A DNA stretch of 64,000 nt from NCBI RefSeq assembly GCF_988242995.1, contig NZ_OZ547044.1. One strand, 5' to 3'. The position numbers were made by a program. Shown here one piece after another: positions 56,801 to 59,800 of this stretch. This DNA is from a plasmid. Numbering within the stretch: the stretch's first letter is position 1; each line of letters begins with the position of its first letter.

Positions 56801-59800
56801 CGACTGAATTTTCATCATACGGAATGACGGAATTTTCTGGGATTCCCGCTTAGAACCCCTCAATGCTGGCCTCAACAAATTGGGTGAATTTTAACAATAT
56901 GTTCACGCTCTCGCCCTGCCCCGGCACAGTCCGCTGAAGGAATGGCAGTTCCGTTCACCACATTTGCTAAGACATCAGGACTTACTTTGTAATCTGGAAG
57001 TACATCGAAGTTGCAACAATAGTACTCTATTGCGTGACGTAGATTCGTGACGTATAGTTACTGCAACTTTTTTGTTTATAACTACCGTCAGGTACAAAAT
57101 TATGTCTCCCGTACAAGCTAAACAAAAGCAGCATGAACGCTACGAAGCCGTAGCGGTGCAGGTTTTGCGTGGTCGTGCCGGTTACAAACCTGCCGTGAAA
57201 AGCCGCTTCAGTAAGTCAGCTAGCAGCAAATTCTCTCATACTATCGCTTTTGCCTGATCCTGGACTTTGAGGCACAATAAACCATCATTCGCTGATGGTT
57301 TTTTTATGCCTGTTCAAGACGTTATTCCCCCCTATGAGCAGATGTACCTGCTAAATCAGCAGCTGATCTGCAACGCTGACCAGTTCAAACATGCCGTTAT
57401 CACAGTTGGCGGTCAGGCTGTGCAATACTGGATATCCTATTATCATGCACAATACGGCGACAGATTGCCTGATGAGCGCCTCACCACATCTGTTGACTGC
57501 GACTACAGCGCCCGGAAAGATGATATTGCGGCTATAGCAAAAACGCTCAACGTTAAGACGTGGGAGAACAAAGACGGTCAGCCCCCATCCCTTGCGCAGT
57601 TTATGCTTATCGATCAGGATACACACGATATCAAACGGGATGATGGACGCTTATTTGCCGTACCGGATGCGCCTGACGAGCCAAATGTGGTGGATATTAT
57701 CGACCGCCCCGGAGGCTTTGACCGTTCTGATTTTCAGGGGAAAAAGCTTTACCTGTATACCGCCCCGTTTTATGTAGAAGCAACCGGCCCCGGCATGCCT
57801 GAAATGAATGAAAAGGTAAGGGTATTGAACCCTGTTGCCTGTATGCGCTCGCGCTTTAGCAATCTGATTGCCTTGCGCCGTGATGCTGAAATTGAAATTG
57901 CGCGTATTAACGCGCTCAAGATCCCGTGTTATTTCTTTCTCATCGAACAGTTTGATGAACAGCCGTTCAAAGTTGCACGAGGAATCTTTATGGATTTATG
58001 GAGGCTCGCGAATGACGAAAGCTGTCTGCGCCATCAGGCCTTCTGGCATAGCTGGCAGGGGCCGCTTCTTGAAGGGCAACAAAGTAACAACATCACTCTG
58101 ATTGATGTGTTGGAAGGCGTACATGTATACCTGGAAGGGCATCTTGATGACTTTGAAATACCGGAAGCCTTTGTCACCAAAGAAGTACCGCTAAAGCTCG
58201 CACAGCTGCGTGAACGCTGGGAGCGTTACGTGGTACTCAATGCTGAATGGGCAGCAAGAGGGCGCAGGGGATTTGAACGTAATCCCCGTGATGATTAGCC
58301 TCCTTTGGGCTGAAAAATTTGCGCATGTGCAAATCACCGGAGCACACGCTAATAGGCCGTTCAGAAGGTGAGCGTCAGGCCACTCTGAAAATTGACCGCA
58401 CCATGCTGCAGAACGGCATTGACCGCAATACCGTCATGAAAATGACCGGTCTGACTGAAGACGACCTGGCGCAGATCCGCCACTAATCGGGGGCTGATGC
58501 TCAGTCGAACGAAAACTCACGTTAGGCGAGAGAAGTCGTCTGAAAAATCGATTAATGGACAATGGTGTCCATTAAGTGCCATTTGCCGATTAAAAACACA
58601 CCGCTTTAGGCACATTTTTCACTGTCCACAATATTCTGATTTATCGGACAAAAAGTCCTTAACGTGTGAAACCGTTCCGTTGAGCGTCAAACCCCTAATC
58701 CCCCTTTCCTGGCACTCCCTGTCCGGCCATCAGCGTAAACAGGTGGGGCAGGGAGGTATTCCTTTCAGGCGCTGCCAGCCAGCCACAGCGGCTGAACAGC
58801 GGCATCAGGTCTGCCACATTCCCGGTCAGACGCGTCAGCAGCGGATTTATCTGTCGGCCATTGTCGTCAAAGGCCGCATCGAGGTGAGTCCGGGAGAGAT
58901 AAATGCCGTTCACGCCGGCATTCAGGGTGACGGCATACCGGCCGGCCCATTCCCTGTCGTTCAGCAGGCGGTAGTTCCAGAGCATATCCTTCGCAGTTTC
59001 CAGGGCATACGTCAGCCGGAACAGGTCGTTCTGTTCAGACAGCTCGCCGGAGCAGGAGCGCCAGAGGTAATCCATTTTTTCGGGCAGTCTGGCCTTGATG
59101 CCATGCCGTCGCCCCTGAGCCAGCAGCCAGCTGATGTCCTGCGAGACCTCCCGCGGAAAACGCCGCTGCTTCAGGGCCGTGGCCAGCCAGCGGGTGAGAA
59201 AGAGGTTTGCCTGAGCAGCCGACCGGACGCCGCCGTCCTGCCGGGCCAGCGCCAGGGCAATCAGGCCGCACCAGGCAAGGTGCCCGGACTTATTCAGTTT
59301 CGTCATGGTTTTTTTTCTCCCTGGCCGCCCGGGAGAGGTCCATTTTCGCCCTGATTCGGGAGACCTGGAGGCGGGCATACTCCGCCTCCGGCGCGGTTAC
59401 CGTGCCCACGGGCTCACCGTGAATGTCATAGCGGGGGGTTCCTTCCTTCAGGCAGCGCTGGTACTCAATGCGGCTGGTAACAGTCCGGATGGCCTGTATC
59501 CACGTCCCGAATGTCATGCCGCAGTCAGGATGCGCATCGATGTACGCCTTCACCTGCTCTTTAATCCCCACCTTCATGGGCCGGAATTTCCCCTTCTCAA
59601 ACTCCGGCCACAGTGCCGGAAAGGTTCTGGCAAAGAGCGCCATTCTGTCGCGGCTTTTCTGCGCATGCCGGTTCCGTTTATCCGGAGAGCGGGCCGTCGT
59701 GTTTTTCGCATCCGGGGTATCAGGCGCGGCAAGAGCCGCCGGGGCTCCGGTGGTTATCTCCCGGAGAGGGGGGGCAGGATGTGTCTGTCCGGATTCAGGG

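Follow-up and report, generated by a model that had tools for sequence, protein, structure and literature searches.

In a 64,000-nucleotide stretch of plasmid DNA (contig NZ_OZ547044.1 of the RefSeq assembly GCF_988242995.1; the whole stretch is called the window below) we have identified, beside Tn4401, two adjacent genes that constitute one conserved operon on a pKpQIL-type IncF KPC plasmid (Table 1). The upstream gene encodes a small basic protein and the downstream gene a large acidic protein with the predicted fold of a nucleotidyltransferase, referred to hereafter as the enzyme. In our assessment the pair is probably a MenAT1-like toxin–antitoxin module, of the addiction or abortive-infection kind, from a previously unannotated family; the enzyme would be a relative, at the level of fold, of the MenT/AbiEii (DUF1814) toxins, with the small protein acting as its cognate inhibitor.

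A preliminary description of the window, made from the sequence alone, had reported the two open reading frames (ORFs) as a basic protein of 51 amino acids and a protein of 343 amino acids, encoded 10 bp apart. Both ORFs are present, but the large protein comprises 330 residues. The frame covers 57267-58298 (343 amino acids) if it is counted from a TTG codon; this start was rejected, as the extension crosses a terminator-like hairpin and is not conserved. The ATG at 57306 is used by the RefSeq entry WP_001145103 and by every homologue, and the gap between the genes is therefore about 48 bp, not 10 bp, and holds the hairpin, which had gone unnoticed. The small frame, counted from a TTG, would extend over 57072-57257, and its conserved ATG lies at 57102.

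Each of the 23 species-representative genomes with a match to the large protein contains the pair, with both genes intact in 18 of them, and 1034 of the 72,556 plasmids of PLSDB (791 of the 1034 from Klebsiella) encode the large protein; there the two products are annotated as ‘hypothetical protein’ only. Judged by this recurrence, the gene pair is not a chance occurrence. It is a stand-alone unit of mobile spread, located on conjugative plasmids and in chromosomal islets, with some copies flanked by insertion sequences (IS); relatives were also found in the chromosomes of plant- and insect-associated Pantoea, Erwinia and Photorhabdus. The genes next to the Pantoea agglomerans locus are housekeeping genes. 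A module 81% identical to that of Klebsiella is filed under Martelella alba (NZ_SZPQ01000011), an alphaproteobacterial genome, while all other close relatives belong to Enterobacterales; this record possibly reflects contamination or recent transfer.

The small ORF is a real protein-coding gene, as follows from its fixed length (exactly 51 codons and zero indels in 10 species) and from the excess of differences at third codon positions (1310, vs 761 and 704 at the other two), a pattern that moves with the frame. It is intact 5' of 18 out of 18 intact enzyme genes, and an ORF of 50-61 amino acids with the same pattern precedes the enzyme at the species-representative loci, the sole exception being Erwinia sp. 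198, which has no intact copy. K7, Y14 and G24 are invariant in the small protein, and its C-terminal tail reads S/A-F-x. It possesses neither a membrane segment nor a nuclease-like domain, and searches of Pfam, NCBIfam and PDB, profiles included, returned no relatives. In each of the seven distant members from metagenomes that were examined, a gene for a protein of 55-65 amino acids without Pfam match is located immediately upstream of the enzyme gene, overlapping its start in four of the seven; these proteins likewise combine a charged stretch at the N-terminal end with an A/S-F motif close to the C-terminus. Comparison by hhalign of our small-protein alignment with the small protein of one distant member detected no similarity. 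The partners across the superfamily thus have in common only size, position and the C-terminal A/S-F motif. In one distant member (loci L034/L035, positions 1698-2138) a 146-amino-acid protein with a Lon_C domain (PF05362) is encoded just upstream of the pair; in this one lineage the neighbour hints at a protease link.

The large protein has no match in Pfam, NCBIfam, PADLOC or the PDB sequences, profiles included, and the defence-system models of PADLOC-DB v2 gave zero families for either protein at E up to 1. Its only PHROGs match is phrog_19559, of ‘unknown function’. The pair is, as had been supposed, conserved and without family annotation in Pfam, NCBIfam or PADLOC. We found 78 cluster-level homologues of the large protein in Enterobacterales, a few of which carry the UniRef name ‘AbiEii toxin’, and a profile search of 1.84 billion representatives (E up to 1e-3) returned 366 members of the family, by which the superfamily would comprise at least 366 clusters at 50% identity. 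Across 39 homologues with identities as low as about 37%, G35 G36 Q37 A38, S62 D64 D66 Y67, D130 I132 D133 (in VDIID), R183 N186 and E197 R200 do not vary; the Gly-Gly followed by Asp-x-Asp that had been pointed out in the preliminary description is thus real and invariant in these homologues. Thirty distant members, with mutual identities of 18-41%, retain GGQ, S-x-D-x-D and P..C..SR..N, and the alignments of close and distant enzymes match each other with an hhalign probability of 99.9. G35 G36, S62-x-D64-x-D66 and D130/D133 are the catalytic candidates.

The AlphaFold2 model of the large protein is a confident one (predicted local distance difference test, pLDDT, 89.5; predicted template modelling score, pTM, 0.88), in which an alpha/beta core (N-terminal) is followed by a helical domain (C-terminal). 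Foldseek searches of AFDB50 with this model retrieved, beyond its own family, many models that carry an AbiEii/AbiGii toxin annotation (E 1e-8 to 1e-11, template modelling score, TM, about 0.6), and its fold is closest to those of the toxins MenT3/TglT, JHP933, MenT4 and MenT1. The modelled structure corresponds to a nucleotidyltransferase fold of the Pol-beta type, and motif I (hG[GS]) and motif II ([DE]h[DE]h) are both present. The suspicion of a nucleotidyltransferase-type fold of the abortive-infection kind was thus borne out by fold (AlphaFold2 and Foldseek) and not by family profile: none of 69 scanned family members (39 close and 30 distant) matches PF08843/DUF1814, and one of the 69 sequences touches DUF2204, another nucleotidyltransferase family.

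For the complex, the small protein was fused to its own enzyme by a Gly-Ser linker and modelled with AlphaFold2 from a paired alignment of 19 natural pairs. The pLDDT of the small protein, per ten residues, is 88, 90, 86, 92 and 79, with the linker below 40, and the chain forms a helix over residues 3-22 followed by an extended part with beta-bridges. Values of 79-92 in a peptide that is not helical imply that it packs onto the enzyme in the model. Comparison of the DSSP strings of the two models suggests new bridges near enzyme residues 56 and 157, which adjoin the S62/D64 loop.

Nucleotide addition at the 3' ends of tRNAs is the activity of MenT toxins. In the best comparable system, MenA1 (68 amino acids) neutralises MenT1 by binding across its active site and induces its auto-phosphorylation on T39, two residues before D41; MenT3 is phosphorylated on S78, ahead of D80 (both PMC10435456, PMC11375011, PMC7450476), and the equivalent residues of MenT4 are S67/D69 (PMC11375011, PMC7450476). 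The S62-x-D64 of the enzyme has the sequence layout of these phospho-acceptor sites; S62-V-D64 is invariant in the 39 close homologues, and the serine is at least 90% conserved in the 30 distant ones. In its overall modelled structure the enzyme resembles the solved DUF1814/AbiEii/MenT members. There are nevertheless clear differences from all described systems. MenAT1 (Rv0078B/Rv0078A of Mycobacterium tuberculosis) has no sequence or profile similarity to either protein; the MenT1 chain counts 195 residues, whereas the enzyme has 330 and a large C-terminal helical domain. The partner resembles MenA1 only in size and N-terminal helix; unlike its counterpart in MenAT1, it is basic and is modelled as binding in part through an extended chain, and the intergenic hairpin has no described counterpart in MenAT1. 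JHP933 of Helicobacter pylori (PDB 4ok0 / 4o8s) is only 10% identical to the enzyme and was not retrieved by sequence search; more generally, the MenT and JHP933 chains in PDB gave no sequence match to it, profiles included. From the DUF1814 toxins (AbiE, MenAT3/TglAT, MenAT4) the family is set apart by its lack of PF08843 and NCBIfam AbiEii matches, and also by the partner, which is not a winged-helix protein like the AbiEi/COG5340 antitoxins of those systems; it belongs to none of the known types of upstream antitoxin (AbiEi/COG5340, COG4861, MenA1). The motif IV lysine of DUF1814 (MenT3 K189 with D211; MenT1 K137 with D152) is not evident here: R183 and E197, which belong to an invariant pair of helices (R183...N186...E197...R200), are spaced by 14 residues as counted along the sequence, compared with 15 in MenT1 and MenT4, with no lysine.

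The region upstream of the small gene contains a candidate sigma-70 promoter, recognised by eye and by conservation. Its spacer carries a direct repeat, CGTGACGTA, twice (57033-57041 and 57046-57054). Inspection by eye of related loci showed, in most of them, a -10 box of the form gcgTATA(G/T/A)T located 35-55 nt 5' of the small ORF. In a consensus promoter scan the site falls below the threshold, and its assignment as a sigma-70 promoter is accordingly put forward as a tentative one. A palindrome, CAATAGTACTCTATTG, overlaps the -35 box and may be an operator; comparable palindromes are found in relatives, e.g., CAATAGTATACTATTG in locus L004. We also observed two perfect inverted repeats. One, TTTTGTTTA/TAAACAAAA (57070-57078 / 57119-57127), would by pairing place the Shine-Dalgarno sequence and start codon of the small gene in a 40-nt mRNA loop; the other, AAGTTGCA/TGCAACTT (57008-57015 / 57062-57069), brackets the putative promoter. 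Both could be regulatory or due to chance.

Between the two genes, a terminator scan revealed a hairpin with a 9-bp stem (AAACCATCA/TGATGGTTT), a 5-nt loop and a run of seven T, the last of which immediately precedes the ATG of the enzyme gene (folding energy -9.6 kcal/mol, z = -3.0). A hairpin and T-run directly before this ATG are present at most Enterobacterales loci and in Aeromonas, with stems that differ between loci (GCCCTC/GAGGGT, GCTCATC/GATGGGC, ACCCCT/AGGGGT and others); even in a plain MAFFT alignment, both bases have changed in a compensatory manner in five of the eight consensus stem pairs. In every case the 3' arm is rich in G and Shine-Dalgarno-like (GAGG, AGGTG, GGAT), about 8 nt before the ATG. 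This hairpin should thus both stop transcription and hide the ribosome-binding site, implying, as far as can be read from its covariation and position at the ATG, attenuated, low expression of the enzyme. Distant relatives are without it, and there the genes overlap. A hairpin that abuts the start codon and is maintained by compensatory changes appears to be a design typical of a dangerous downstream gene.

In type III systems (ToxIN type), a Rho-independent terminator between antitoxin and toxin ensures a high antitoxin-to-toxin ratio, and the hairpin described here occupies an analogous position. The two arrangements differ in that the putative antitoxin is a protein and not a repeat RNA, and the putative toxin a nucleotidyltransferase and not an endoribonuclease. 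An RNA antitoxin, an idea raised by the terminator, was rejected: neither a tandem-repeat RNA array nor an Rfam match was found, and the upstream region evolves as coding sequence.

An upstream ORF followed by a terminator could alternatively constitute a leader-peptide attenuator, in this case controlling a small-molecule nucleotidyltransferase of the aminoglycoside/lincosamide resistance type. We consider this very unlikely. The small ORF, with its 51 codons, is conserved at the protein level across genera, it is kept in the distant, terminator-free relatives, where it overlaps the enzyme gene, and its predicted position is docked on the enzyme; no pairing that could act as an alternative anti-terminator came to light. 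The occurrence of relatives in chromosomes of plant- and insect-associated bacteria also speaks against drug resistance, as do the AMRFinder and RGI calls in PLSDB, from which the gene is absent in the records that were inspected, and the repeated pseudogenisation of the enzyme gene, which argues for a cost.

This decay is asymmetric. The enzyme gene is inactivated in 5 of the 23 genomes by five different lesions. Photorhabdus thracensis has a frameshift or insertion close to residue 249, Pantoea latae a nonsense codon as its codon 25, and Aeromonas salmonicida a frameshift around residue 145; P. agglomerans NBRC 102470 has lost residues 78-280 by an in-frame deletion, and in Erwinia sp. 198 the gene is down to 50 codons. 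Four of these genomes retain an intact small ORF, the exception being Erwinia sp. 198; at no locus was an intact enzyme found without the small ORF. About 250 chromosomal places match in the complete genomes of E. coli, and the sampled ones hold the module in part only. In E. coli BL21-AI (NZ_CP047231; locus L036, 4103-4762), the 51-amino-acid gene is intact (WP_000074142) and the enzyme is a truncated pseudogene with an internal stop, situated beside transposase/IS fragments; other E. coli chromosomes keep just the 3' third (locus L037). The remnant of the same module in BL21, and so in laboratory strains of E. coli B, has the appearance of an orphan antitoxin plus dead toxin. Such a pattern of decay is what would be expected if the enzyme were the toxin and the small protein its antidote, and it speaks against the reverse roles. 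The pair has the generic features of a toxin–antitoxin system, i.e., adjacency of two genes, mobile and patchy distribution, and more frequent breakage of the presumed toxin gene.

The reverse roles were considered as a rival reading. In type VII systems (HEPN/MNT), the nucleotidyltransferase is the antitoxin and its partner a HEPN RNase. By analogy, our enzyme might neutralise or nucleotidylate the small protein, e.g., at Tyr14; the small protein would then be the toxic or active factor, or a regulated nucleic-acid-binding effector. The similarity lies in the combination of a minimal nucleotidyltransferase, such as MNT antitoxins also are, with a small partner and control by covalent modification; the small protein is very basic, with invariant Tyr and Lys, the enzyme is acidic, and the two bind tightly in the fused model. 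We still judge the reversal quite unlikely. The small protein has no HEPN motif, membrane segment or nuclease-like domain. The small gene stands first and the enzyme gene is attenuated by the terminator, which would yield an excess of small protein, an antitoxin-like stoichiometry. Moreover, the decay is opposite to that expected for type VII: several lineages have lost or broken the enzyme and retain an intact and apparently expressible small gene, which would be lethal if its product were a toxin in need of the enzyme.

Several observations weigh against the pair being a MenAT1-like toxin–antitoxin module. We found no toxicity data for any family member. A defence-island neighbourhood, for which the preliminary description had proposed to look, was absent from the two chromosomal loci examined. 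No phage-borne copy occurs among the INPHARED phages, which leaves the PHROG membership without a traceable phage source. The structural scores are moderate, and no clear equivalent of the Lys/Asp pair specific to DUF1814 (MenT3 K189/D211) is seen, R183 and E197 being the only candidates. An acidic enzyme (pI 5.0) with a basic partner (pI 10.7) is unusual for an RNA-binding toxin and its antitoxin, and the Shine-Dalgarno-like GATGG of the enzyme gene in the window is weak.

Some of these points would suit a non-toxic cellular role, in which the enzyme and a regulatory or chaperone subunit serve, for instance, RNA or nucleotide metabolism or signalling and travel on plasmids as cargo. The missing toxicity data, the housekeeping neighbours in Pantoea agglomerans and the size of the family (366 clusters) are compatible with it. 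We regard such a role as unlikely in view of the patchy, mobile distribution with IS-flanked copies, the frequent inactivation of the enzyme and the strong attenuation of the downstream gene, and also of the nearest structural relatives, which are toxins.

Table 1 Features of the module and its surroundings (positions in the window)
Feature	Position	Strand	Remarks
Tn4401 end	56859		Inverted repeat
Left backbone remnant	56919..56959	.	41 bp, 90% to pKPC-5502 locus 2067-2107, just upstream of rpn; marks left junction
Palindrome CAATAGTACTCTATTG, candidate operator	57017..57032	.	Read from sequence; overlaps -35 box
Candidate sigma-70 promoter	57030..57058	+	TTGCGT - 17 nt - TATAGT; by eye and conservation
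Shine-Dalgarno-like AGGT of small gene	57090-57093		
Small gene, proposed antitoxin/partner	57102..57257	+	51 amino acids, pI 10.7; conserved ATG at 57102
Terminator-like hairpin and T7 run	57279..57305	+	Terminator scan; last base just before ATG 57306
Large gene, proposed toxin	57306..58298	+	330 amino acids, pI 5.0; nucleotidyltransferase-fold protein
rpn remnant	about 58363..58488	+	Last ~40 codons (~ residues 277-316); right junction
DUF2913-family gene	58695-59306	-	phrog_15786, function not known to PHROGs
ProQ/FinO-family gene	59290-59880	-	Overlaps DUF2913-family gene

The region of the module is 100% identical to that of pKpQIL-like IncFII/IncFIB KPC-2 plasmids of Klebsiella pneumoniae (e.g., pBIC-1a, NZ_CP022574). 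To its left lies Tn4401, with KPC, ISKpn6, ISKpn7, tnpA and tnpR, which has inserted near the 3' end of an ISAs1-family transposase gene starting at 45813 (E=9e-125) and is flanked on both sides by the 5-bp target duplication TCAAT (46949-46953 and 56860-56864). The duplication and the split transposase gene agree with the earlier placement of the module beside a Tn4401-disrupted ISAs1 element, whose right end must fall between 56865 and ~56918.

The junctions of the module were mapped against the intact Rpn-DUF2913 backbone of pKPC-5502 (locus L031, 2067-3122). IncF plasmids of this type have the gene order resolvase, Rpn of 316 amino acids and convergent DUF2913 gene; the window keeps the resolvase (43144-43798, 92%) and the DUF2913 gene, together with a left backbone remnant that holds the short inverted repeat GGAATGGCAGTTCC. 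At the right junction, the similarity of the frame 58319-58486 to the Rpn model is confined to the final ~41 positions (TIGR01784, E=7.5e-9, 233-273 of 273), and the remnant is 90% identical to residues 277-316 of the full-length plasmid Rpn. The 1.4-kb module (~56960-58362) has a guanine-plus-cytosine content of 0.48, vs 0.57-0.62 in the surroundings. By this comparison with the intact backbone, the module has replaced the rpn promoter and codons 1-276, in keeping with the earlier impression of an Rpn-like tail without upstream body and of a module placed in or beside a disrupted rpn gene. C-terminal domains of Rpn proteins are antitoxins (RpnS), made from internal starts (PMC10400941). By the layout given there (PMC10400941), the remnant has neither the PD-(D/E)xK nuclease domain (RpnL) nor the first helix of the three-helix C-terminal domain (RpnS), the one with the 4-amino-acid repeats, which in the intact plasmid Rpn are GLQQ/GIEK; it has no Pfam match. 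The remnant is most likely dead, and it is not part of the two-gene module. The DUF2913 and ProQ/FinO genes are kept as a pair beside rpn in many IncF plasmids without the module, and therefore do not belong to it either. Further downstream, we noticed by eye an ORF resembling an IS26-type transposase (61052-61774, - strand), an abutting 5'-truncated resolvase-like ORF (61815-62210, + strand) and an ORF that resembles a gene for an SOS-response-associated peptidase of the YedK type (62257-62907, + strand).

Taken with the conservation of the pair, the predicted fold and its motifs, the covarying hairpin and the modelled complex, the asymmetric decay allows us to propose how a MenAT1-like module might operate. 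Both genes would be driven by the promoter in front of the small gene. Most transcripts would end at the hairpin and its U-run, at the ATG of the enzyme gene, and in the transcripts that read through, the G-rich ribosome-binding stretch of the enzyme would be trapped in that hairpin's 3' arm; through termination and sequestration together, the small protein would therefore be made in large excess. It would grip the enzyme via its N-terminal helix (3-22) and its extended C-terminal segment with the S/A-F-x tail. Neutralisation could then be achieved in one of two ways: the active site may be occluded by the small protein or, as with MenA1/MenT1, the enzyme may be induced to autophosphorylate at the active-site serine, which here would be the invariant S62, located two positions ahead of D64. 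Once the small protein, presumably labile, is no longer made, either through plasmid loss or through phage-induced shut-off, the enzyme would be freed. It would then nucleotidylate an essential target, by analogy with MenT the 3' ends of tRNA, and arrest growth, the outcome being post-segregational killing or abortive infection.

Toxins of the nucleotidyltransferase type that are paired with small antitoxins have been described before, and the module is thus no new category. No published description of it came to light, nor any paper that mentions the RefSeq protein accessions or that brings together pKpQIL, toxin–antitoxin and nucleotidyltransferase. Its novelty consists in two proteins that fall outside all profile libraries searched (the PHROGs match being to a family of ‘unknown function’), in the size of the family, and in the combined terminator and anti-Shine-Dalgarno device, which is unusual for a protein–protein system. 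More tentatively, as a possibility to which we give somewhat less than even weight, all strands may be joined in a single picture. The pair would be the founding member, widespread in the clinic, of a nucleotidyltransferase toxin superfamily of at least 366 clusters without a profile in Pfam, NCBIfam or PADLOC; the toxin would be restrained by a partner of 50-65 residues with a small-residue/aromatic end, through a MenA1-like induced autophosphorylation of the S62 type; in Enterobacterales, the hairpin, as terminator and anti-Shine-Dalgarno element, would set the toxin:antitoxin ratio; and the module would aid the persistence of pKpQIL KPC plasmids or their exclusion of phages.

The pKpQIL-type IncF plasmids are major vehicles of KPC carbapenemases, and over 1000 sequenced plasmids, those of the main KPC plasmid lineage among them, carry the module. 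If the proposed function is correct, a new family of nucleotidyltransferase toxins and a new family of small antitoxins would be added to the catalogues from which both are now missing, the pair would offer a tractable enterobacterial model for MenT/AbiEii-type toxins, and terminator-based dosage control would be shown in a protein–protein system. As an addiction or abortive-infection module, it would represent an unlisted factor of stability or phage exclusion of the pKpQIL-type plasmids.

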